Origin: Candidatus Woesearchaeota archaeon
GTDB lineage: Archaea; Nanobdellota; Nanobdellia; Woesearchaeales; WJKR01
Length of the DNA stretch: 64,000 bases
Assembly (NCBI GenBank): GCA_016927245.1
Contig: JAFGNA010000022.1
Span: 3,128 to 67,127 of the forward strand
Direction of reading: 5' to 3'
In this document: positions 9,656 through 64,000 of the stretch, piece by piece
How the letters are laid out: each line of letters starts with the position of its first letter
How positions within the stretch are numbered: the first letter of the stretch is position 1
Program-made: the position numbers and the translations under genes
The notes under the pieces: model-generated
Seen by the model: only the letters and a program-made list of their open reading frames with translations
What the model was told of the DNA's origin: nothing
The model's database searches: none

Positions 9656-10918
9656 ATGTCTTTCATCTCCCAGTACGGCAGCGTCATCATCTTCTACGCC
9701 GCCATCATCGGCATCATCTACGCCAACAGGAAGAAGTTCGACTTCCCCGCCAAGCTCATCGCCATGTACCGCACCAAGATAGGCATCAGGCTGATGCACA
9801 AATGGGGCGAAGGAGCAGAGAGATTCATCAAGGCGCTCGCGCTCATCGGCATCTACGTCGGCTTCGCGGGCATGCTCCTCGCGTGCTGGCTCATCATCAA
9901 GGGATGGTTCAACCTCCTCTTCGTCCCAGAAGCGCCGGCCATGTTCGCGCCCGTGCTGCCAGGAGTCAAGATTCCTGGCGTGGACGTATTCATACCATTC
10001 TGGTACGGCATCATCGCCCTCTTCCTCACCATCGTCGTGCACGAGTTCAGCCACGGCGTCGTCGCGGCCGCGCACAGGCTCAAGGTGAAACACTCAGGAT
10101 TCGTCATGTTCGGGCCGCTGCCAGGAGCGTTCGTCGAACCCGACGAGAAGCAACTGATGAAGGCGAAGCCCAAGGTGCAACTAGGGGTGTACGCCGCGGG
10201 GCCATTCAGCAACATCCTCCTCACCCTCATCCTCATACTCGCATTCGGATTCCTCCCCTTCTTCGCCGCGAACCTAGGAGGCGGGAGCGAAGGTCTCGAA
10301 CGGTTCACCGAGAAAACGAGCATCACGAGCTTCACCGAACTGTTCGACGAGCTGTACCGGCCCGCAGGCCTCCCCACCAATGCAGTCCCAGGAGGAGCAG
10401 CGGCCGAAGCAGGCGTGATGAACGGCACCGTGGTGAAGGCCATCAACGGCGTCGAGATCTACAACCTCACCGCATTCATCGACGAGTACCTTGCCATCGC
10501 GAACCTCACCCCTGGCGACACCATCACGCTGAGCAACGCCACGCACGATTTCATCATCACGACAAGGACGCACCCGGACAACGAATCACGCGCCTACCTT
10601 GGCGTGTTCTTCGACTGGAACGCCGCCGCTGTCGAGCCGGACCCCGCAGCGCAGGAGCGGTTCGGCCCGGCAGGGTTCAAGTTCCGCGAAGTAGCGTTCT
10701 GGCAGGTGTTCTGGCTCATCGTGCTGAGCAGCGGCATCGGCCTCGCAAACCTCCTGCCCATAGGGCCTGTGGATGGCGGGCGCATGTTCCTCATCGCCCT
10801 TGAACGAGTCTTCCCAGAGGAGCGCGCTAGGAAGCTATGGGGCAAGGTCAGCGCGTTCGTGCTCATCAGCATCATCATCCTCGTGCTCGCGCCCATCATC
10901 AAGCACTTGTTGTTCTGA
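9656..10918 (+). CDS. Site-2 protease family (M50) membrane metalloprotease with PDZ-like region
   Basis: HEFSHGVVAAAH (HExxH), multiple TM helices, LPIGPVDGG near the C-terminus. Confidence 0.75.
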   Translation: MSFISQYGSVIIFYAAIIGIIYANRKKFDFPAKLIAMYRTKIGIRLMHKWGEGAERFIKALALIGIYVGFAGMLLACWLIIKGWFNLLFVPEAPAMFAPVLPGVKIPGVDVFIPFWYGIIALFLTIVVHEFSHGVVAAAHRLKVKHSGFVMFGPLPGAFVEPDEKQLMKAKPKVQLGVYAAGPFSNILLTLILILAFGFLPFFAANLGGGSEGLERFTEKTSITSFTELFDELYRPAGLPTNAVPGGAAAEAGVMNGTVVKAINGVEIYNLTAFIDEYLAIANLTPGDTITLSNATHDFIITTRTHPDNESRAYLGVFFDWNAAAVEPDPAAQERFGPAGFKFREVAFWQVFWLIVLSSGIGLANLLPIGPVDGGRMFLIALERVFPEERARKLWGKVSAFVLISIIILVLAPIIKHLLF

Positions 10919-55576: not shown

Positions 55577-56010
55577 TGTTGCTCGAGTTGTTGACGCACC
55601 CGTTGTTCTTGTCAGCGTTCTGTACGTGGCTGGCGGCGGGTGCCATCAAGTTCGCGGTGGTGAGCGTGAATGGTGGGAATCGGCCGTCGTTCGCTGAGGA
55701 GTTGTTCAAGACGGGAGGGATGCCTTCTGGCCACAGCGCGGTCGTGGCCGCGACGACGATGTCCGTGTTCTTCCTTCAGGGCGTGTCGACCTTGTTCCTC
55801 GTGTGCGCCGTGTTCAGCATCATCATCATCCGTGACAGCTTCGGCGTGCGGTGGAGCGTGGGCCAACAAGCAAAGGTTTTGAACAAGCTGGCGCAGAAGG
55901 AGAAGTTGCACGAGAAGGTCAAGGTCGTCCTGGGCCATACCTTGTCCCAGGCCGTCGCGGGCATCATTCTGGGCGTGATCGTCGCGGTTGTCGTGCATCT
56001 AGCCGTCTGA
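55576..56010 (+). CDS. DUF212 / divergent PAP2 family membrane protein
   Basis: GGMPSGHSAVVAATTMSV, FGVRWS motifs; ATG overlaps the stop of the upstream gene. Confidence 0.55.
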   Translation: MLLELLTHPLFLSAFCTWLAAGAIKFAVVSVNGGNRPSFAEELFKTGGMPSGHSAVVAATTMSVFFLQGVSTLFLVCAVFSIIIIRDSFGVRWSVGQQAKVLNKLAQKEKLHEKVKVVLGHTLSQAVAGIILGVIVAVVVHLAV

Positions 56011-56053
56011 GAAGAAAAACCTTTAAAAACCTCGTTCTGGTACGCTCTGGTGC

Positions 56054-56170
56054 GCCTCCGTAGCATAGTGGCTAGTGCGTCGGTCTTGTATTGCGAAAAC
56101 GAGGGTTTTCGAAACTCTCGCTGTCGTTCGAGCAAACCGAAGGTCCCGGGTTCGACTCCCGGCGGGGGCT
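56054..56170 (+). tRNA. tRNA-Thr (anticodon TGT) with 44-nt intron at 37/38
   Basis: Acceptor GCCUCCG/CGGGGGC, D-arm GCAU-AGUGGCUA-GUGC, anticodon arm UCGGU-CUUGUA[intron]A-ACCGA, T-arm CCGGG-UUCGACU-CCCGG, discriminator U. Exon nts 32-35 CUUG pair 4/4 with intron CGAG ahead of the 3' splice site (BHB-like). Confidence 0.8.
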
Positions 56171-56314
56171 TCTTTCTCTTATTATAAACAGGTATAACAA
56201 ATATCCTGCTTTTTGGCCGCTTTGTCTTATACCTCCATGTTGATTTTTCTGTATAATGATGAATTTGTGCTAGTGAGTTGTTATTTTATTCGGGTTGCAG
56301 GAAAAAATAACGGG

Positions 56315-57145
56315 CTATTTCTTCTTTGATGCAGTCCCCTTTGCATTGAATGTTCTGTATAATGCGGGTAACGCACTAAGCGATTCTCTCAAATCAATGC
56401 CTAACGATTCCATCGTATTGAAATAATTATCAAGGTTAAGATTGTCATCGCTAGTGATTTCTACGATAAATTTTTTGTTGAGTTTTTGAGAAATGCGTCT
56501 AAGTTCATGTTCTTCAGGAGAATATTCTGTTTCTCGTCCTGCGAATCTCTTGAAGAATGTGGGGGCTTTCGTTTCTAAGCCAGTGTCAGCCGTCCAATAC
56601 ATCTCGTCGTTGAAGAAATCTGTTTTCACGAATTCCTCAAAGTAATGTGCTTTTTCTAGCATGAATTTTGATACTTTGGGTAATGGACCGAGTCGCCACA
56701 CATCCATTGTCGATGGGTTTTTTCCTTTGCTTTGTATGTCTATGCGCTCGATTAATCCTTTTTTTGCGAGTTGTTTTAGTGCGTTAGCGCAGTGTGTTTT
56801 CTTGTATTTTTGGTGCAATCCATCTTTTATGAATGGACCCGTCATCATGTAAGAATCATAATATCTTTGTGCCCTGACATGCTTCGCAGTCCATTGGATG
56901 TATTTAGGTTTTCCAGCAAAGACATCACCATCATCTTGCCCATCGTCGGTCTTGCCACCATCGTAATTCCTTTTGAAATCTGTTGCTCTCGCGAATAGTT
57001 GATTTTCGTTTAGTGTTGTAGAGGTTATTTTTTGCGTTTTTTTCTCTTCATCAGTCTTGGGGTTGGGGTGAGGATTGGCCATAAAAAGTATTATTTGTTC
57101 TTGTATGTCTTTCGGGTATTTAGTCCGTTTATTGGCTGTTTTCAC
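56315..57145 (-). CDS. Hypothetical protein of the integrated element
   Basis: 276-aa AT-rich ORF, Lys-rich, no clear motif. Confidence 0.4.
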   Translation of the reverse strand: MKTANKRTKYPKDIQEQIILFMANPHPNPKTDEEKKTQKITSTTLNENQLFARATDFKRNYDGGKTDDGQDDGDVFAGKPKYIQWTAKHVRAQRYYDSYMMTGPFIKDGLHQKYKKTHCANALKQLAKKGLIERIDIQSKGKNPSTMDVWRLGPLPKVSKFMLEKAHYFEEFVKTDFFNDEMYWTADTGLETKAPTFFKRFAGRETEYSPEEHELRRISQKLNKKFIVEITSDDNLNLDNYFNTMESLGIDLRESLSALPALYRTFNAKGTASKKK

Positions 57146-57364
57146 GGAGTATATGGACTGTATATCTGCTATTTATAAGTATCTATTTTGACCTTTAAAT
57201 AACGTATTTTGTTCACAAAAAAACTCTATTAGCGTAGGAAAATAATTTTTACAAGCATGAATACCCCATTAACATGAAGGAATTACCACGAGAAGTGGAA
57301 GAGCAACTCAGCATAGAAGTTCGCATAATACGAGCCTTTTACTTCTCGAAGCGGAGGGAAAAAC

Positions 57365-57529
57365 ATGAAGCAAGAAGTCAAGCAACTGATGGTGTACGTG
57401 CCGAAGACAATCCACAATAGGCTACGGCAACACTCAAAGAAAGTAGGCATCAACATGAGCGCACTAGCAAAACTAGCACTACACCAATACCTGGAGAACG
57501 AGGCGAACAACGATGAACGTGCACAATAG
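57365..57529 (+). CDS. Ribbon-helix-helix (CopG-like) protein, plasmid copy-control type
   Basis: Hand-translated 54 aa MKQEVKQLMVYVPKTIHNRLRQHSKKVGINMSALAKLALHQYLENEANNDERAQ; directly upstream of the replicase, as with pRN1 orf56. Confidence 0.6.
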   Translation: MKQEVKQLMVYVPKTIHNRLRQHSKKVGINMSALAKLALHQYLENEANNDERAQ

Positions 57530-57992
57530 ACTCATGAAGGACGAGTTCCGCTTCATCCTTTTAGAAGATGGAGGAAAGCCAATGGAACCCGCATGGCGAG
57601 AAAAGAACAACTATACCTATAGAGACAAGAAACTCAAAGACCACGTCTGGAAGAACCTCCCTTACGCCATCCTTTGCGGCAAGGGCAATCTCGTTGCAGT
57701 AAGCTTCAAGGACCGAGAAGCCTATGATAAGTATGCTGATGCATTGCCCTTGACACTCATGGCATCCCTCAAGACACTTAGCAAAGTAAGTTACTATTAT
57801 TGCGAGAACGCCCGAACAAAGATAATTAGGAACAAGAAGAACAAGCACGTAGCAACAATTCATGGAAAAGGCTCGTACTGCCTCGCACCAGAAAAGAGCC
57901 TAACCAGTTCATCGTGGTGTGATTACGTGTTCGACGTTCCCATTACTCGCATTAAGTACGAAGAACTAGAAGCCGTTTTCGATGAAAAATGA
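57513..57992 (+). CDS. PrimPol-domain paralog with substituted catalytic aspartates (likely inactive)
   Basis: Aligns with the N-terminus of the downstream replicase (RFILLEDGG..YAILCGKGNLVAVSFKD vs RFIIMWGKK..YGLLCGAGNYLVVDFDD); the DxD motif is replaced by SxK. Confidence 0.5.
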   Translation: MNVHNRLMKDEFRFILLEDGGKPMEPAWREKNNYTYRDKKLKDHVWKNLPYAILCGKGNLVAVSFKDREAYDKYADALPLTLMASLKTLSKVSYYYCENARTKIIRNKKNKHVATIHGKGSYCLAPEKSLTSSSWCDYVFDVPITRIKYEELEAVFDEK

Positions 57993-60109
57993 CCATCCCT
58001 GAACGACTTAGAACAGACGAAGCTCGATTCATTATAATGTGGGGAAAGAAAGGGAGCGAGGGTTGGACGACCAATGCAAATTATCATTGGAGCAATAATA
58101 AATTACAGGAGCACATAGGTAAAGGAGGAAATTATGGGCTTTTGTGCGGTGCTGGTAATTACCTCGTAGTTGATTTCGATGATGTAAAAACTATGAATAA
58201 GTATTACCCTCTGCTTCCATCATCGTTCACTGTAGAGACTGGTTCGGGGAAGAAACATGTATATTTCAAATGCGACACACCTATATCTAAAAGAATAAAA
58301 AATAAAGAAGGCAAATCGCTAATTGACATTCAAGGCAATAAGACGGCAGTGCTCTGCCCAGGAAGCAAACATCCTGACACAAATAAAGAGTATAAAGTAA
58401 TCAAAAACACAGATGTTGTTCCTATCGAATATCATGAACTTCTAGAATTATTTTCAGAATTAATAGTTAACGAAGACCTTGAGTCATCGACCAAGAAACA
58501 ACGCATTACGTATAAAGATGAAATTACCGAAAGGATTAAAGAACTAGAAAAAATATCAAACACACTATCAGACATGGGGATTCCAACAAACAAAAACCCA
58601 ACGGAATGCCCATTTCATGCCTCAAAAAGAGGGCAGTGCCTAAGTTTTGACGACGAGAAGGGCTTATGGCACTGTTTCCACTGCCTTGAAGGGGGCGACA
58701 TATTCAACCTTTATATGAAAAAGGAAAACTGGTCATTCATCGAAACAAAGAAGTATTTGATGGAAAAGCATAACCTATTTGAGGCTAAGGAAGAACCAGA
58801 GAAAAAAAGAAATATCGATTGGCGAAAGTTAGCACTAGAACTCCATAAAATAAACCCCTATTTCTTTGACAAAGGACAAAACTTTTGGGCGTGGGCACAT
58901 CAAAGGAAAGCCTACGAACTTGTTGATAAGATTGATATGATGAATATGTTTGATGCCGCATTTAACATGCCAGGAACCAGCTCAATAAGAACTCAAGCAA
59001 CAATACTAGAATCCCTAAGAAGAATTGGGCGACTAAAAATTCCTAAGGACATGCCCCCTACATGGGTACAATTCAAGGATAAGGTTGTTGATATTTCAAC
59101 TGGTGAAGAACTACTCCCTTCGCCAGAGTACTTTGCAGCAAATCCTATACCTTGGAAGTACGTTGTGGGAAAAGAAACCCCAAGAATAAACGAATTGCTC
59201 ATAGAATGGGTTGGGGAGGAATACGCTTTGTCCTTGAAAGAAATAATGGCATTCGCAATGATTCCAAACTACTTCATTCATAGAATGTTTTGCTTTATAG
59301 GGCAAGGAACGAATGGGAAGTCATCTCTCACCAAACTAATCTCCACGTTCCTTGGTGAAGATAATTGCTCAAGCGTTGACTTCCACTTCCTCATAACAGA
59401 TAGGTTTGCAACAGCACAAAAACTATACAAGAAGCTAACTTGCCTAATCACGGAAACCGACTTTGATGATGTCAAGAAAACAGCAAAATTCAAAAGCATT
59501 GTAGGCGACAAAGACAAAATGAGTTTTGAGTACAAGCACAAAACATCATTTGATGGCTATAATTACGCAAAGCCAATCATTACCACCAACCACCTCCCTC
59601 AAACTTACGACCAAAGTGATGGCTTTTTTCGCAGATGGTTCATCATTGATTTTCCGAACAAGTTTCCGGAAGACATTGACCCATTACTAACGATACCTGA
59701 AGAAGAATATGAGAACCTCACTGGCGAACTCGTAGAAATCGGGAAAAGGCTTTGGGTGGAAAGAAGATTTACCAACGAAGGAACAGTTGAACAAAGAAAA
59801 GAAAACTACGAAAAGCACAGCAACCCACTAAAGACGTTCATCGACACCAGACTAAAAAAAGACATCAATGAATTTATCGTGAAGAGAGAGTTCTTTGAGC
59901 TTTTTGAAAAATATTGCGAGGAAAAGCAAATACCAAAGTGGACCGAAAAAACAGTTGGCTCGGTAATGAGAAAACTCGAATATGAGACTGATAGAAAGTA
60001 CATCAATGGGGAACTGCACAGAGTCTTTACAGGAATCTATGTTGAGCGCAAAGATGAAAAGATTGCTGACACCAATATTCTTGACTTCGAGAAAGACGTT
60101 AATGGGTAA
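57989..60109 (+). CDS. Primase-polymerase (PrimPol/AEP) - zinc-binding - SF3/P4-type helicase replication protein
   Basis: VVDFDD (AEP catalytic DxD), Zn motif CPFH..C..WHCFHC, Walker A FIGQGTNGKSSL, Walker B LITETDFDD; 706 aa like pRN1 ORF904-type replicases. Confidence 0.8.
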   Translation: MTIPERLRTDEARFIIMWGKKGSEGWTTNANYHWSNNKLQEHIGKGGNYGLLCGAGNYLVVDFDDVKTMNKYYPLLPSSFTVETGSGKKHVYFKCDTPISKRIKNKEGKSLIDIQGNKTAVLCPGSKHPDTNKEYKVIKNTDVVPIEYHELLELFSELIVNEDLESSTKKQRITYKDEITERIKELEKISNTLSDMGIPTNKNPTECPFHASKRGQCLSFDDEKGLWHCFHCLEGGDIFNLYMKKENWSFIETKKYLMEKHNLFEAKEEPEKKRNIDWRKLALELHKINPYFFDKGQNFWAWAHQRKAYELVDKIDMMNMFDAAFNMPGTSSIRTQATILESLRRIGRLKIPKDMPPTWVQFKDKVVDISTGEELLPSPEYFAANPIPWKYVVGKETPRINELLIEWVGEEYALSLKEIMAFAMIPNYFIHRMFCFIGQGTNGKSSLTKLISTFLGEDNCSSVDFHFLITDRFATAQKLYKKLTCLITETDFDDVKKTAKFKSIVGDKDKMSFEYKHKTSFDGYNYAKPIITTNHLPQTYDQSDGFFRRWFIIDFPNKFPEDIDPLLTIPEEEYENLTGELVEIGKRLWVERRFTNEGTVEQRKENYEKHSNPLKTFIDTRLKKDINEFIVKREFFELFEKYCEEKQIPKWTEKTVGSVMRKLEYETDRKYINGELHRVFTGIYVERKDEKIADTNILDFEKDVNG

Positions 60110-60599
60110 GTGTTGCCAGGATTGCCATAATTGCCACCATTCTTATATTGTGAATACCACTTATTGTATTTGGTATAATGGAATAAAGAAAGGTGGCAAA
60201 CCTGACAATTGTGGCAAAAAGAAGCATAAGCATTATATTTGCCATCACATTCCCACAGGCATGGTCTACGAAGCCCGTACATTTGGTGCCTGGGAGGTCG
60301 AGGACGACCTCATCCAAATAGGCATCCTTGACTACCCAATAATCCTTTCGTTCACCTACGAGCAACTTAATAGCATTAGAAGGGACCTCTCACAGCTGCC
60401 TGATTTCCAGGTCTACGATGACGAGCTACGAGATTTTGACTCGATTAGAGCATACACGTCACCCGGAGAGGAAATGGTCTACGTCCTCTTCAAAGAGCTA
60501 GGAGGACTAAGCGTAGGCATACCTAAGAAGGAGTTCTCGACCTTCTGCGAGGAGCTGGTGCAGCTCAACCCGCAATTCATGCTGGAACGGGAAAATTGA
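60102..60599 (+). CDS. Cys/His-rich small protein (putative zinc-binding), C-terminal half of higher GC
   Basis: MGKCCQDCHNCHHSYIV..CIWYNG..CGKKKHKHYICHH N-terminus; ATG overlaps the replicase stop. Confidence 0.4.
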   Translation: MGKCCQDCHNCHHSYIVNTTYCIWYNGIKKGGKPDNCGKKKHKHYICHHIPTGMVYEARTFGAWEVEDDLIQIGILDYPIILSFTYEQLNSIRRDLSQLPDFQVYDDELRDFDSIRAYTSPGEEMVYVLFKELGGLSVGIPKKEFSTFCEELVQLNPQFMLEREN

Positions 60600-60780
60600 C
60601 ATTCCCTCAAGCCATTTATAAACAGTTTGTTTATAAACAGTTCATTTATAAACGGCGATAGAGGGGCAGGGAGTATTTTAAGGATGGATTAAAATAACGC
60701 CACCAAAAGGAGGCTTTCGAGCATTTCTCGCCTTCAAATTGCAAATCTATATAAGAATCACCTTTTAACCACTTCAAAGT

Positions 60781-61566
60781 ATGCTGACTGAAGACATTGC
60801 ACTGTACCAAGAGCTACTCGACTTATGCGGGGACATTACCCAATATACCGAAAACACACAGACATTCCATTCTCAAATGTCTTGGACACCCCTCAATGAA
60901 AAATGTAATCATACAATATTACCATTATCAGAAGTAGTACCAAGACAAAGCTTATTTCCTAAAATACCGGAATTAGAGCAAGAATGTAAAGAATGCTGGA
61001 AATTCTATCTCTCACCGAGAAACAAGAGCATTAGAGTTCTGGACATACAATTAGGAAGAAAATTTGAATTCAAGCTCATCGAGTTCCTGAAAAGAAAAGG
61101 TATCGACTGCAGAAAAGGAGATGAGGAAGACAAACGGTTTCCTGATAATGTTGTTTATACTGACGGGAAAAAATCAGCATATTTGGAGATAAAGTATCAA
61201 TCAGCACCATGGCTGTGGGCTTATCGTGAAGAAGGCTCCAATAGAGAATGTTATGAAGGCAGCCCCGCATTAGACATAAAAAAATTAAAACAACAATATG
61301 AACTAATAAAGTCAGGTGCAATAACCATCCCATCGTATTATGTTTACTGGTTGGACTTCCCATGCATCAAAGGAGTATTTTTCATCTCAATAGAAGATAT
61401 GTATAAATTCTTTGAAGAAGAGGCAATTCTTTTTGATAGAAAGGAAAGAGAAGGAGACTTCAAAACAATTAATGGAGTAAAAAAGAAAGTTTCAGCCACA
61501 ATAAAAATTCATCCTTCATTATTTAGAATGAAATCATTTTCACAATTGCTTGAGGTTTTGATATAG
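60781..61566 (+). CDS. PD-(D/E)xK nuclease-fold protein (candidate restriction endonuclease)
   Basis: FPDNVVYTDGKKSAYLEIKYQ fits PD...(D/E)xK; several CxxC pairs; gene abuts the TGT-like gene. Confidence 0.45.
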   Translation: MLTEDIALYQELLDLCGDITQYTENTQTFHSQMSWTPLNEKCNHTILPLSEVVPRQSLFPKIPELEQECKECWKFYLSPRNKSIRVLDIQLGRKFEFKLIEFLKRKGIDCRKGDEEDKRFPDNVVYTDGKKSAYLEIKYQSAPWLWAYREEGSNRECYEGSPALDIKKLKQQYELIKSGAITIPSYYVYWLDFPCIKGVFFISIEDMYKFFEEEAILFDRKEREGDFKTINGVKKKVSATIKIHPSLFRMKSFSQLLEVLI

Positions 61567-63012
61567 ATGTTTGAATTAAAAAAGAAAATAGGTTCTATTA
61601 GAAGCGGAGTATTTCATAGTAATAAGAAAGCAAGTTCTACGCCTTGTTTTTTCGCCACGTCAAATTTTGGAGGTGGTGGAACGAATGTTTCTCGCCTGTT
61701 GGTATATTCTGATTTGTTAAGTGAATCGAATATTAATCTGTTATTAAATTATTATTATATTGATATTGACTCTGATTTGAGTCCAAGATTCGACACCTCT
61801 TTGGTTGAGGATTTCAAAGGTATGAAAGATATACTTGATTTTATTAAACACATTAAGAAAGCATACTGTGAGAAAAGTGATGCTCTTAAGAAAGATTATT
61901 CCATATCTGAATCGGAGTGGAAGCCTGTAGTTTTGTTAGATAGTGGCTCAGGAAACATTCTCAGGAATAAAATAAAAAATAAAGAGTTGACCAAAGATAA
62001 TTATTCAGAGAAGTATAAATCTGTTGTTGATGATTACCTTTCATTCTTAGAAAAACATCTTTTTGATATAGGTATTGTAATGGACTTTGCTAAGAAAAAT
62101 ACTTACAAGGCAGGAGAACTTAGCGATGTTGAATATGTGAAAAATATAACTTTTTTCACAACAAAGAACTTTGACCTCTTGAAAATGACACTTCAAGAAC
62201 AAAAACAGAAGTTTCCCAATCTTAATTTGTTTGTTCCAATTCACGGAGATTCACTTGAAGAATATTATGATTATTTAAAGAATATACTTAAATTAGAATC
62301 AAAAGAAAAATTTCTTTTCAAGGGATTTGCTATAGGGGGTTTAGGAAATCCTAATAAGGTAGATAAGACTATTTGGGGTATTCCTGATGAAGTTAATGGG
62401 AAAGTTAAAGGGATGCTTTATCTCAATAAAATAGCTGCAAAAATAAGAAAAACACTTGATGAAAGAAGCGACGATAGGCCTATTCACATTCTCGGCGCGG
62501 CATCACCATATAACCTAATACCCTTACTTTTATCAGGAATGGATACTTTTGATTGTCATAGTGCGTGGAGACGAGCGTCTGATGGCAACAGCGATTCAAA
62601 AGACTATGTGTTGAAGTCAATAAAAGAAAATGTCAAGGTTGATGGAGATGTAAAATTCTCTAAAATACTTGTTCCTTTACTAAAAAAAGACCTGTCCATT
62701 ATTGTGGAAAATAAATCATCATTTTTAGAATTCGAAAAATTACATTTGATTAAAAATGATAATTGGAATTGTGATTGTCCAGTTTGTGAAAAGTTTTCAA
62801 TTAATCAAATTAAAGAATTATTTTCGGGTGACCAAGAAAGAAACTTTTTTTCAAAAATATTGATTTACATTCATAGCATATATCAATATCAATACATTTG
62901 CGAATTGTTTTCCTCCTTTGATAAGTATGATGATGTTGGAAGGTTTATAGAATCGCTCCCTGATTGTTCCTATAAAACTAACCTTAAAACGTTTTTAGAA
63001 CACATAATATAG
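61567..63012 (+). CDS. tRNA-guanine transglycosylase (TGT) superfamily protein, DpdA-like candidate DNA 7-deazaguanine transglycosylase
   Basis: TGT hallmarks in order: STPCFFATSNFGGGGT (cf. TPCFMPVGT), VVLLDSGSGN (cf. LTDSGGFQ catalytic Asp), GFAIGGLG (cf. GYAVGGLAVGE), PIHILGAASPYNLIPLLLSGMDTFDCHS (cf. PRYLMGVG..GIDMFDC), zinc site CDCPVCEKF (cf. CDCYTC). Confidence 0.75.
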   Translation: MFELKKKIGSIRSGVFHSNKKASSTPCFFATSNFGGGGTNVSRLLVYSDLLSESNINLLLNYYYIDIDSDLSPRFDTSLVEDFKGMKDILDFIKHIKKAYCEKSDALKKDYSISESEWKPVVLLDSGSGNILRNKIKNKELTKDNYSEKYKSVVDDYLSFLEKHLFDIGIVMDFAKKNTYKAGELSDVEYVKNITFFTTKNFDLLKMTLQEQKQKFPNLNLFVPIHGDSLEEYYDYLKNILKLESKEKFLFKGFAIGGLGNPNKVDKTIWGIPDEVNGKVKGMLYLNKIAAKIRKTLDERSDDRPIHILGAASPYNLIPLLLSGMDTFDCHSAWRRASDGNSDSKDYVLKSIKENVKVDGDVKFSKILVPLLKKDLSIIVENKSSFLEFEKLHLIKNDNWNCDCPVCEKFSINQIKELFSGDQERNFFSKILIYIHSIYQYQYICELFSSFDKYDDVGRFIESLPDCSYKTNLKTFLEHII

Positions 63013-63792
63013 TTACATGAAATCTTTCAGGTTTGATTCTTTTTTCAATCTGTTTCTGGTCATTTCACAATATTTCTTATCTAAATCTATACCAATAGAA
63101 TTCCTTCCAAGCTTTTTTGCAGCTAACAAGGTTGTTCCAGAACCGACAAACGGGTCAAGTACCCAATCACCCTTATTGGAAGACATTTTTATGATTCGCT
63201 CAATCATGTCTACTGGATAAATGCAAGGGTGTTCAGTTATTCCCAACTTCTTCTTAGTCATGTTATTAACTCTATTGAAAAACCAAACATCTGTTGGGTT
63301 TCTACCAGAACTTGCATCGAACCGCTTATCATTTTGAGTAATGACGGGAATTTTTACATCTTTTAGGTTGAATACATAGTTGTTAATATCTTTTACGAAC
63401 CACAATACCGCCTCCCATCTCCCGGCCAGTCGTTTTGTTGGATTTTGCATATTATTAAAATGCCAGATTATTTTATTACGTAGAAAAAAACCATTCTTTT
63501 TTCCTATTCCCCATGCAATTGAATCTAATGGGATTATTTCCTTTGTCTTTTTGTCAGGTATAGGACTCACATTCAAAAAGAAGCTTCCATCAGGGGTTAA
63601 TACTCTTTTCAGTTCTTTGAAAGTAGCGCTTATCAGTTTCTTCCATTCATCAATATGGACATCATCAATGTAGAGCAAATAATCTTTTTTTAGATTGTAT
63701 GGTGGCGAGGTAACAGCAAGTCTAATTGATTTGCTCTTGAGTTTCTTTAGTTCTTTAATACAATCTCCTTGTATTATGTTAGCTTCAACCAT
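63013..63792 (-). CDS. DNA methyltransferase, N4-cytosine/N6-adenine beta-class
   Basis: Motif [12 protein letters not shown] (SPPY) precedes motif [10 protein letters not shown]; 259 aa. Confidence 0.85.
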
Positions 63793-63979
63793 TATACTTA
63801 ATCTCCATAGGTTTTCTTGTTGAAAAAGCGTCTGATTCGTTCAAAAGTCCTAAAACCCACGATTTTGCTTGCTTTAAGACGTGCCTTAGCTCACGACTCC
63901 CCACCCATTCTCCTTCACTAAACAATTCATCAACCCTATCAGCTTGTGTTTTTGTTAGAATATGTTTTGTTTTCGTCAA
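63785..63979 (-). CDS. Small hypothetical protein of the element
   Basis: 64-aa AT-rich ORF overlapping the MTase start. Confidence 0.3.
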
Positions 63980-64000
63980 AGTATTTTCATATGTTATTCT

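Follow-up and report, generated by a model that had tools for sequence, protein, structure and literature searches.

A probable cryptic integrated element with a transglycosylase-like cargo gene at the 3′ end of an archaeal tRNA-Thr(TGT) gene

Introduction

Cryptic integrated elements (CIEs) were defined for Thaumarchaeota, where they have short attachment (att) sites (median 17 bp), use intron-containing tRNA genes as targets and occur in arrays (Krupovic et al. 2019, PMC6563490). Another point of reference is the plasmid pRN1, whose ORF904 is included in the Pfam family PF09250; the pRN1-like primases group with the PrimPol-proper family, which has a mixed archaeal and bacterial membership (PMC5862659). 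Here, we analysed a 64,000-nt stretch of DNA (the window) from contig JAFGNA010000022.1 of a metagenome-assembled genome (MAG) labelled Candidatus Woesearchaeota archaeon (GCA_016927245.1). Its last part, positions 56171–64000, is the left 7.8 kb of a 13.1–13.3 kb element, termed E1, which is very probably a cryptic integrated, plasmid-like element inserted by site-specific recombination at the 3′ end of a tRNA-Thr(TGT) gene (TGT being here the anticodon).

Results

A low-GC insertion follows tRNA-Thr(TGT) and is absent from a related genome

To follow E1 past the end of the window, we used a 16,348-nt Logan contig (L001) from SRR13394437, retrieved by an exact-protein look-up. L001 is the reverse complement of window positions 55711–64000, with no mismatches over 8,290 nt, and continues for 8,058 nt beyond. 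Positions in the extended numbering are 72059 minus the L001 position. The insertion is framed by the following features.

56054..56170, + strand: tRNA-Thr(TGT), intact, with an intron of ~44 nt; integration target, attL side (Rfam RF00005)
56158..56170, + strand: att core CCGGCGGGGGCTT, attL copy, made up of the last 12 nt of the tRNA plus 1 nt (repeat count in L001)
56171..64000: window portion of E1; the whole element reaches ~69265–69469 (L001 2794–2590)
56171 to ~70517 (extended; L001 1542): whole insertion array

An earlier note on this DNA had described a sharp compositional break directly after the tRNA gene, and both measures that it proposed, windowed GC content and tetranucleotide statistics, bear this out. 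The GC content in 2-kb windows was 53–62% across positions 1–56000 and 32–42% for 56001–64000, and at 500-nt resolution it dropped from 53.6% (55750–56249) to 41.6% (56000–56499); the mean after tRNA-Thr was 38%, as against 55–62% before it. The tetranucleotide correlation to the host profile was 0.885–0.963 in 14 of 14 host 4-kb chunks, as compared with −0.15, −0.32 and −0.23 in the three island chunks and −0.24 for the window portion of E1. The GC content returned to 57–60% at L001 1–1500, where a host gene of the GH3 family sits.

The empty site is present in L003, a MAG labelled uncultured Methanosarcinales archaeon, which was found by a genome-collection scan with the GH3 flank protein (69% protein identity). 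L003 is collinear with the window at 46.6–56.09 kb (blastn, 72% over 3.9 kb) and with the extension at 70.58–72.06 kb (73% over 1.46 kb), and it shares the genes for DUF58, BatA/vWA and a small membrane protein with the host flank. The synteny stops exactly at 56171. In L003, tRNA-Thr(TGT) lies ~70 nt from GH3 with no dip in GC, and ~14.4 kb here corresponds to ~100 bp there between the two genes. Since L003 keeps the same flanking genes with only ~100 bp between them, the ~14.4 kb is an insertion, consisting of E1 (13.1–13.3 kb) and two short older remnants. This empty site, together with the distal repeats of the tRNA end described below, confirms the tRNA-Thr 3′ end as the insertion site, as the earlier note had proposed. 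An exact look-up with a protein of the host flank yielded nothing but a short contig from the same sample, which provided no empty site.

An extreme GC difference of 20 points, metagenomic data and an element seen in one sample only might all be expected if the low-GC block were an assembly or binning chimera. However, the same genes occur in the same order in two assemblies, the Logan contig and a 91.5-kb NCBI contig of a MAG labelled Candidatus Woesearchaeota archaeon, on which all E1 proteins and the host flank proteins are recorded (locus tags JXA12_057xx). Host DNA lies on both sides, its two flanks are adjacent in L003, and the junctions coincide with the tRNA 3′ end and its repeats, which is unexpected of a random chimera. 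Because synteny resumes beyond the insertion, which an assembly chimera would not produce, we consider this explanation scarcely credible and as good as ruled out.

The labels of the two syntenic MAGs conflict, Candidatus Woesearchaeota for the source contig at NCBI and Methanosarcinales for L003, although the two are collinear with 72% DNA identity. The 58% GC of the host contig is unusual for Woesearchaeota.

The target gene was matched by Rfam RF00005 with 55 bits over model positions 1–71, not truncated, and its anticodon loop holds an insertion of 46 nt, equivalent to the ~44-nt intron. The anticodon arm, UCGGU-CUUGUAA-ACCGA, gives the anticodon TGT (Thr), and the syntenic ortholog in L003 was called tRNA-Thr(tgt) by ARAGORN. 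This ortholog (9861–9932) has no intron; therefore, the intron was gained or lost between the related lineages. A second intron-containing tRNA is at 41256–41360 (− strand), with an anticodon-loop insertion of ~34 nt according to Rfam. ARAGORN made no call for either intron-bearing tRNA of the window, and Rfam recovered both.

Repeats of the tRNA end bound E1 and record reuse of the site

No further copy of the tRNA-Thr 3′ end occurs elsewhere within the window, because attR lies past 64000. In L001, the core CCGGCGGGGGCTT is present in five copies with at most two mismatches, all on the same strand, as compared with 0.11 expected; this count was reached in none of 200 shuffles. The 11-mer GGCGGGGGCTT has no occurrence in the 56 kb of host DNA. 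The distal copies are as follows (extended numbering, same strand as the tRNA for units A–C).

69253–69265: unit A, core copy with 1–2 mismatches
69335–69347: unit B, core copy with 1–2 mismatches
69457–69469: unit C, perfect 13-nt match
70133–70145, same strand as the tRNA: unit D, core copy with at most two mismatches
70505–70517: degenerate sixth core copy TCGGCGGCGGCTC, found when three mismatches were allowed
between units C and D: 168-aa P-loop kinase-like gene resembling (DNA) topology modulation proteins, in a 0.68-kb remnant
between unit D and the host: 85-aa membrane/Zn-ribbon open reading frame (ORF85), in a 0.37-kb remnant

Units A, B and C are tandem modules, 82 and 122 nt apart, with the core and its left and right arms in common, and their right-arm motif GGTAWAA... 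is also present after the tRNA at attL. They span L001 2548–2849 (extended 69210–69511), directly upstream of the integrase gene. The units may have been left behind as footprints by lost elements, or may serve E1 as repeated integrase-binding modules. A small hairpin, TCGGCTCGAAACCGA, lies between units B and C.

The surroundings of TCGGCGGCGGCTC align with the L003 tRNA 3′ end, trailer and GH3 start codon. This alignment identifies TCGGCGGCGGCTC as the displaced and decayed original 3′ end of tRNA-Thr. The two remnants (L001 1633–2457, extended 69602–70426) have a GC content of 44–50%, intermediate between element and host. The order of the locus is thus the tRNA, E1 (13.1–13.3 kb), A-B-C, the kinase remnant, D, the ORF85 remnant, the relic core, the trailer and GH3, which is the pattern expected when related elements reuse one tRNA site and the older copies decay. 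Arrays from repeated use of a site have been described for tyrosine-recombinase elements (PMC6563490).

An intact XerA-like integrase lies beyond the window

No ORF in 56171–64000 matched a recombinase family. The earlier note had likewise seen no integrase in the window, and had suggested that the element extends past 64000 and that a tyrosine integrase and a direct repeat of the tRNA-Thr 3′ segment should be sought downstream. Both are in L001, ~4–6 kb beyond the end of the window.

67951–69159 (extended; L001 2900–4108), − strand: 402-aa tyrosine integrase (PF00589, 3e-18)

The integrase matched the archaeal XerA model at 4e-24, below the equivalog cut-off, and among solved structures the XerA entries 4a8e and 5hxy are closest to it in sequence. 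Aligned to these, it has the catalytic Arg (GGRIGE), the beta-hairpin Lys (GKTGER), HxxR (HLFRHS), a Trp in the position of the second His, and the Tyr (RTYVHL); a Zn ribbon follows at the C-terminus. Since the catalytic residues are all conserved, the enzyme should be active, and the alternative idea in the earlier note, a partitioned or missing integrase, did not hold. Specifically, an integrase of the SSV partitioning type was rejected in view of one uninterrupted 402-aa ORF and att copies located at least ~90 nt upstream of its start codon. A casposon or transposon was also rejected: the element has no Cas1, transposase or terminal inverted repeat, but a tyrosine recombinase with direct repeats.

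The integrase family is very large in archaea (>1,300 matches at E ≤ 1e-10), with members annotated in Woesearchaeota, Aenigmarchaeota, Nitrososphaeria, Methanolobus, Syntropharchaeia and Thermoplasmatales. A relative with 40% identity lies directly beside tRNA-Cys in another Woesearchaeota MAG (JACPIF010000011; L022), in a 5.7-kb element (L022 4846–10581) of 30–38% GC within a host of 45–53% GC. A perfect 16-bp direct repeat, CACCGGGTGCTTATTT, brackets this element and consists of the last 11 nt of tRNA-Cys plus 5 nt of trailer. This parallel supports the recombination of a short attP core, mimicking the tRNA end, with the tRNA gene.

The closest relative on long contigs (45% identity, L021) is beside VirB4/TraG/type IV secretion system (T4SS) pilin genes. 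The region that it heads (L021 10001–20894) encodes ParB and a TFIIB-like protein besides the VirB4/TraG-like ATPases and the T4SS pilin, and is a putative integrative conjugative element of archaea; the 21 kb of L021 analysed contained no detected tRNA.

E1 might instead be a decayed and immobile genomic island, in which the integrase and att sites are relics and which is effectively a fixed defence island. The att copies nearest to the integrase are degenerate (1–2 mismatches), the older remnants in the array show that decay occurs at this tRNA-Thr site, and a circular form was not observed. On the other hand, the integrase is full-length with all catalytic residues, the replicase and all cassette genes (below) are intact, one distal core copy is a perfect 13-nt match, and the strongly unameliorated composition argues for a recent arrival. 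We therefore regard the immobile island as unlikely, and an element that may still be mobile as the better description of E1.

The replication module resembles that of pRN1 in architecture

The replication genes form a co-oriented operon with overlapping genes.

57365..57529, + strand: 54-aa ribbon-helix-helix (RHH; CopG/Arc-like) protein, head of the replication operon (weak Pfam and PHROG matches)
57513..57992, + strand: 159-aa paralog of the replicase PrimPol domain (BLASTP against replicase residues 1–157)
57989..60109, + strand: 706-aa replicase with a PrimPol (archaeo-eukaryotic primase) domain, a CHC2 Zn finger and a P4/D5-type superfamily 3 (SF3) helicase (Pfam, NCBIfam, PHROG)

For the RHH protein, the matches to Pfam CcdA, RHH_5 and RHH_3 (E-values between 3e-3 and 8e-3) did not reach the curated cut-offs; a PHROG Arc-like repressor matched at 9e-4. 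The RHH gene overlaps the 159-aa ORF by 17 nt at the 3′ end. The product of this ORF is 31% identical to the replicase PrimPol domain (E = 4e-23), with a weak Pfam Prim-Pol match (E = 0.02), and its metal- and nucleotide-binding motifs are replaced (DFDD by SFKD, GKKH by LSKVS). The paralog is probably inactive, and may be an accessory or regulatory subunit. The replicase itself matched Pfam Prim-Pol (4e-13), Zn_ribbon_DnaG (3e-10) and DUF5906 (1e-16), NCBIfam primase_Cterm (P4 family; 5e-39, above the cut-off) and a PHROG DNA primase (3e-53). The RHH, PrimPol-Zn-SF3 helicase and methyltransferase (MTase) genes listed in the earlier note are thus all present, as seen with Pfam, PHROG and NCBIfam.

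We then considered whether E1 is an integrated member of the pRN1 plasmid family (pRN1, pRN2, pHEN7 and pDL10 of Sulfolobales), as the term pRN1-type in the earlier note implies. As in these plasmids, an RHH (CopG-like) gene is located directly upstream of, and co-oriented with, a PrimPol and SF3 replicase, and E1 is in the same small size class. The helicase half is 26–31% identical to the four plasmids by tblastn (E down to 1e-23; pRN1, 28%), and a fifth Sulfolobus plasmid, NC_010011, has 22% identity over replicase residues 48–562. The PrimPol domain matches PF09250, a relation to pRN1 at the superfamily level only. In contrast, this domain gave no PDB match even at E ≤ 10, though pRN1 ORF904 structures are deposited, and the sole PDB match of the full-length replicase was a DnaG Zn finger. 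The best plasmid match to the replicase by E-value is bacterial (Alicyclobacillus, 1e-32); the helicase is no closer to the pRN plasmids than to bacterial or haloarchaeal plasmid primases, and no plasmid record covers at least 80% of the replicase. E1 also differs in its added Zn finger, its 58% GC, non-Sulfolobales host of another phylum, and its intact, XerA-like integrase. Integrated relatives of the pRN plasmids use SSV-type partitioned integrases. Among the small ORFs, searches of Pfam, PHROG and NCBIfam gave only RHH or Zn-ribbon matches as regards PlrA or ORF80, with no PlrA-specific sequence or model in the comparison. Membership of the pRN1 family is thus very improbable: the earlier note was right about a plasmid-like element with an RHH gene, and 'pRN1-like architecture' is a fair description, but 'pRN1-type' as a family assignment is not.

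The nearest replicase relatives, ~40% identical, lie on a contig of a tailed archaeal virus (L012/L013) and, in L014, in an element beside an integrase and tRNA-Ala. Because its relatives sit in a tailed virus and in another integrase-bearing element, the E1 replicase is a replication module widely shared among mobile elements. The L012/L013 contig (JGI Ga0369713_1000472; NCBI JAHYJJ010000001, a Methanosarcinaceae MAG) is ~46 kb long, with a replicase 38% identical to that of E1 and genes for an HK97-type major capsid protein (MCP), a tail tube, a terminase and PolB; it is apparently a tailed archaeal virus or provirus.

A repeat search located an imperfect 46-nt palindrome with three TTTATAAAC repeats at 60611..60656, between the replication module and the cassette described below. 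It could be a cassette operator or an origin element.

A four-gene cargo cassette includes a divergent tRNA-guanine transglycosylase-like enzyme

The right part of the window and the adjoining extension carry a restriction-modification (R-M)-like cassette, in which TGT stands for tRNA-guanine transglycosylase.

60781..61566, + strand: 261-aa candidate PD-(D/E)xK restriction endonuclease (motif; conserved partner of the TGT-like gene)
61567..63012, + strand: 481-aa TGT-superfamily enzyme of a divergent clade (Pfam TGT, 3e-12)
63013..63792, − strand: 259-aa N6/N4 DNA methyltransferase A (Pfam N6_N4_Mtase, 1e-55; PADLOC type II MTase, 1e-57)
64093–64965 (extended), − strand: second N6_N4 MTase (family match, 2e-60)

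Of the motifs of tRNA-guanine transglycosylases, the Asp of DSG, the Asp of FDC and the CxCxxC Zn motif are retained in the TGT-like protein. The AlphaFold model of this protein is a confident one (predicted local distance difference test, pLDDT, 90.9; predicted TM-score, pTM, 0.92) and scored 24.9 against bacterial TGT, 23.7 against DpdA (7ui4), 22.0 against QTRT2, 21.8 against ArcTGT and 18.9 against Cap10, while the sequence identity to any solved branch is 12–19%. The model thus predicts a TGT fold roughly equidistant from these five branches. With PADLOC, the generic TGT model gave 1e-6 and the DpdA model 3e-3; a family profile did not reach DpdA 7ui4 in the PDB at E ≤ 0.01, and no match to DUF6610 (DpdA4) was obtained in the Pfam search.

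For the 261-aa protein, the pattern F-P-D...(13 aa)...E-x-K-Y, a signature of PD-(D/E)xK restriction nucleases, is invariant in four homologs, which makes it a candidate PD-ExK nuclease. Its single-sequence AF2 model was unusable (pLDDT 35), and the best match in a PDB profile search, at E = 0.42, was non-significant. Compared with type II R-M systems, two N6_N4 MTases are confirmed, and the linked endonuclease is a candidate, assigned from the PD...ExK motif.

The linkage of the four genes is conserved across loci. TGT-like homologs with 50–56% identity occur in Aenigmatarchaeota and Patescibacteria MAGs, in loci with the same order as in E1: a ~260-aa gene, the TGT-like gene, two convergent N6_N4 MTases and a small ORF. 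Both E1 MTases are 70–76% identical to the copies in these two groups; MTase A is 73–74% identical to the cassette MTases of L016, L018 and L019 (loci from Aenigmatarchaeota, Patescibacteria and a JGI metagenome), in which the nuclease homolog is also beside the TGT-like gene. When metagenomes were scanned with the family alignment, 29 loci had a member of at least 25% identity. In 22 of these, a nuclease homolog (32–71% identity) and two MTases (55–76% identity) are adjacent to the TGT-like gene, in varying arrangement and strand orientation. In the other seven, the contig is cut off no more than ~1.2 kb from the TGT gene; an MTase is still present in five. More distant TGT-superfamily matches (≤23% identity) had no nuclease or MTase neighbours. 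Neither the cassette nor the TGT-like protein matched the phage, plasmid and IMG/VR collections, and we found no description of the four-gene cassette in the literature searched.

The cassette occupies 60781–63792 and continues to extended position 65089 (L001 6970–11278); it is also present in L016, L018, L019 and L023–L049, in most cases accompanied by a small RHH ORF. Its occurrences range over DPANN archaea, Patescibacteria and metagenomes of gut, marine and sediment origin. The cassette is the lowest-GC part of E1, at ~31% as compared with ~40% for the backbone. Because of this lower GC and the 70–76% identity of its MTases to the Aenigmatarchaeota and Patescibacteria copies, we conclude that the cassette is a separately mobile module acquired by E1. 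It appears to spread horizontally among DPANN archaea, Patescibacteria and other microbes on E1-like elements.

The cassette probably acts in defence or addiction. We tentatively propose, while leaning against it on present evidence, that it is an undescribed R-M-like system whose TGT-like enzyme acts on DNA guanines as the obligate partner of the PD-(D/E)xK nuclease and the two beta-class MTases. The enzyme may add a second modification (7-deazaguanine or another base) at target-site guanines, or it may be part of restriction, through base excision or exchange on unmethylated DNA.

Other genes of E1 and the provirus question

The remaining genes are listed below.

56315..57145, − strand: ORF276, adjoining attL (no Pfam, PHROG, NCBIfam or PADLOC match)
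60261..60599, + strand: ORF112 (gene call in L001; no family matches)
63785–64093 (extended; C-terminal part in the window, 63785..64000; L001 7966–8274), − strand: ORF102, between the two MTases, E1-specific
64955–65089 (extended), − strand: 44-aa Arc/RHH-like protein
65205–66689 (extended), − strand: 494-aa DUF2779 and putative Cas4-like nuclease
66928–67179 (extended), + strand: 83-aa Zn-ribbon protein
67236–67898 (extended), − strand: 220-aa membrane/coiled-coil protein

ORF276 is a strict ORFan, matching itself alone among 1.84 billion representative proteins, and ORF102 has no homolog in the other cassette loci. A scan for sigma-70 promoters and terminators returned counts at shuffle level, the sigma-70 model not being relevant to archaea.

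Such genes leave room for E1 to be a provirus of an unrecognised archaeal virus type, with capsid proteins among its ORFans: besides ORF276, the 220-aa membrane/coiled-coil protein and other small ORFs are unannotated, and relatives of the replicase occur in the tailed archaeal virus contig. Many archaeal virus capsid proteins escape profile searches. However, searches of E1 with Pfam and PHROGs gave no match to an MCP, portal, terminase, packaging ATPase or spike-like protein, nor to T4SS or conjugation proteins, with four ORFs left unannotated. The IMG/VR scans contained no relatives of the integrase, the replicase or the TGT family, and genes for replication, integration, R-M and nucleases together fill some two-thirds of the 13 kb. 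We consider a provirus quite improbable, and a plasmid-like element remains our interpretation of E1.

Discussion

The following course of events would account for this locus. The E1 integrase would have recombined an attP, mimicking the tRNA 3′ end and some of the trailer, with the tRNA-Thr gene. Integration would have regenerated tRNA-Thr and placed another core copy, CCGGCGGGGGCTT, distally in E1, where one of units A–C may be the functional attR. The tRNA-Thr site was used repeatedly, leaving the remnants and the decayed original 3′ end upstream of GH3. An excised E1 would replicate through its RHH-controlled operon, with the probably inactive PrimPol paralog and the PrimPol-Zn finger-SF3 replicase. 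As cargo, E1 carries two putative nucleases, the DUF2779/Cas4-like protein and the PD-ExK candidate, and the mobile four-gene R-M-like cassette.

Several points weigh against this interpretation. E1 is known from a single sample, in which every protein cluster is a singleton, and the Logan contig and the NCBI MAG contig may share the same source reads. The att core is short (13 nt perfect), and three candidate attR units within 210 nt make the right boundary of E1 ambiguous by ~200 nt. ORF276, ORF112, ORF102 and the 220-aa membrane protein have no homologs of known function, so an unrecognised virus type is possible. In addition, no recombination directionality factor was identified in E1, and neither an excised circle nor an attP junction was observed.

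E1 is a clean and fully bounded case of site-specific integration at a tRNA gene, from an archaeal lineage that has been little studied; an empty site serves as its control, and a history of site reuse is visible at the locus. The integration event itself is ordinary rather than surprising, and the case is useful for MAG annotation and for cataloguing archaeal mobile elements. The part of E1 that merits follow-up is the TGT-containing cassette, in which a TGT-fold enzyme is invariably accompanied by a nuclease candidate and two highly conserved MTases, in archaea as well as in bacteria. If the TGT-like enzyme does act on DNA, transglycosylase-based DNA chemistry would be extended to a compact, mobile R-M format.

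Among known systems, the cassette can be compared with the Dpd system and its DpdA enzymes, which are DNA 7-deazaguanine transglycosylases (PMC10164549, PMC10516641). The E1 protein shares the TGT fold, the two catalytic Asp residues and the Zn site with the DpdA family, and it is not assignable to bDpdA or DpdA1–4 from the PADLOC, DUF6610 and PDB results, a comparison in which DpdA1–3 sequences were not included. No DpdB or preQ0-synthesis genes occur in E1 or in the cassette loci with listed gene tables; unlike in Dpd, the constant neighbours of the TGT-like gene are a ~260-aa PD-ExK candidate and two N6/N4 MTases.

As for the element as a whole, the tRNA-Cys element of L022 is similar in its same-family integrase, its use of a tRNA end plus trailer as the target and its low GC in a higher-GC host. 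It differs in its smaller size, in its tRNA target, in having no recognised PrimPol replicase or R-M cassette, and in the position of the integrase, which adjoins the tRNA there and is at the distal end in E1.

The best class label for E1 is a cryptic integrated element with an XerA-like, non-partitioning tyrosine integrase. Like the CIEs, E1 has a tyrosine recombinase, a tRNA 3′-end target (intron-containing ones included), an array formed through site reuse, a PrimPol-SF3 replicase, RHH regulators and MTase/R-M cargo, and lacks virus and conjugation genes; the direct repeats are short in both, with a median of 17 bp in CIEs and 13 nt in E1. E1 is set apart from the CIEs by its host lineage label (Candidatus Woesearchaeota, with the nearest syntenic MAG labelled Methanosarcinales, as opposed to Thaumarchaeota), its DnaG-type Zn finger, its probably inactive PrimPol paralog, its TGT-like cargo and the three tandem att-like units beside its integrase.

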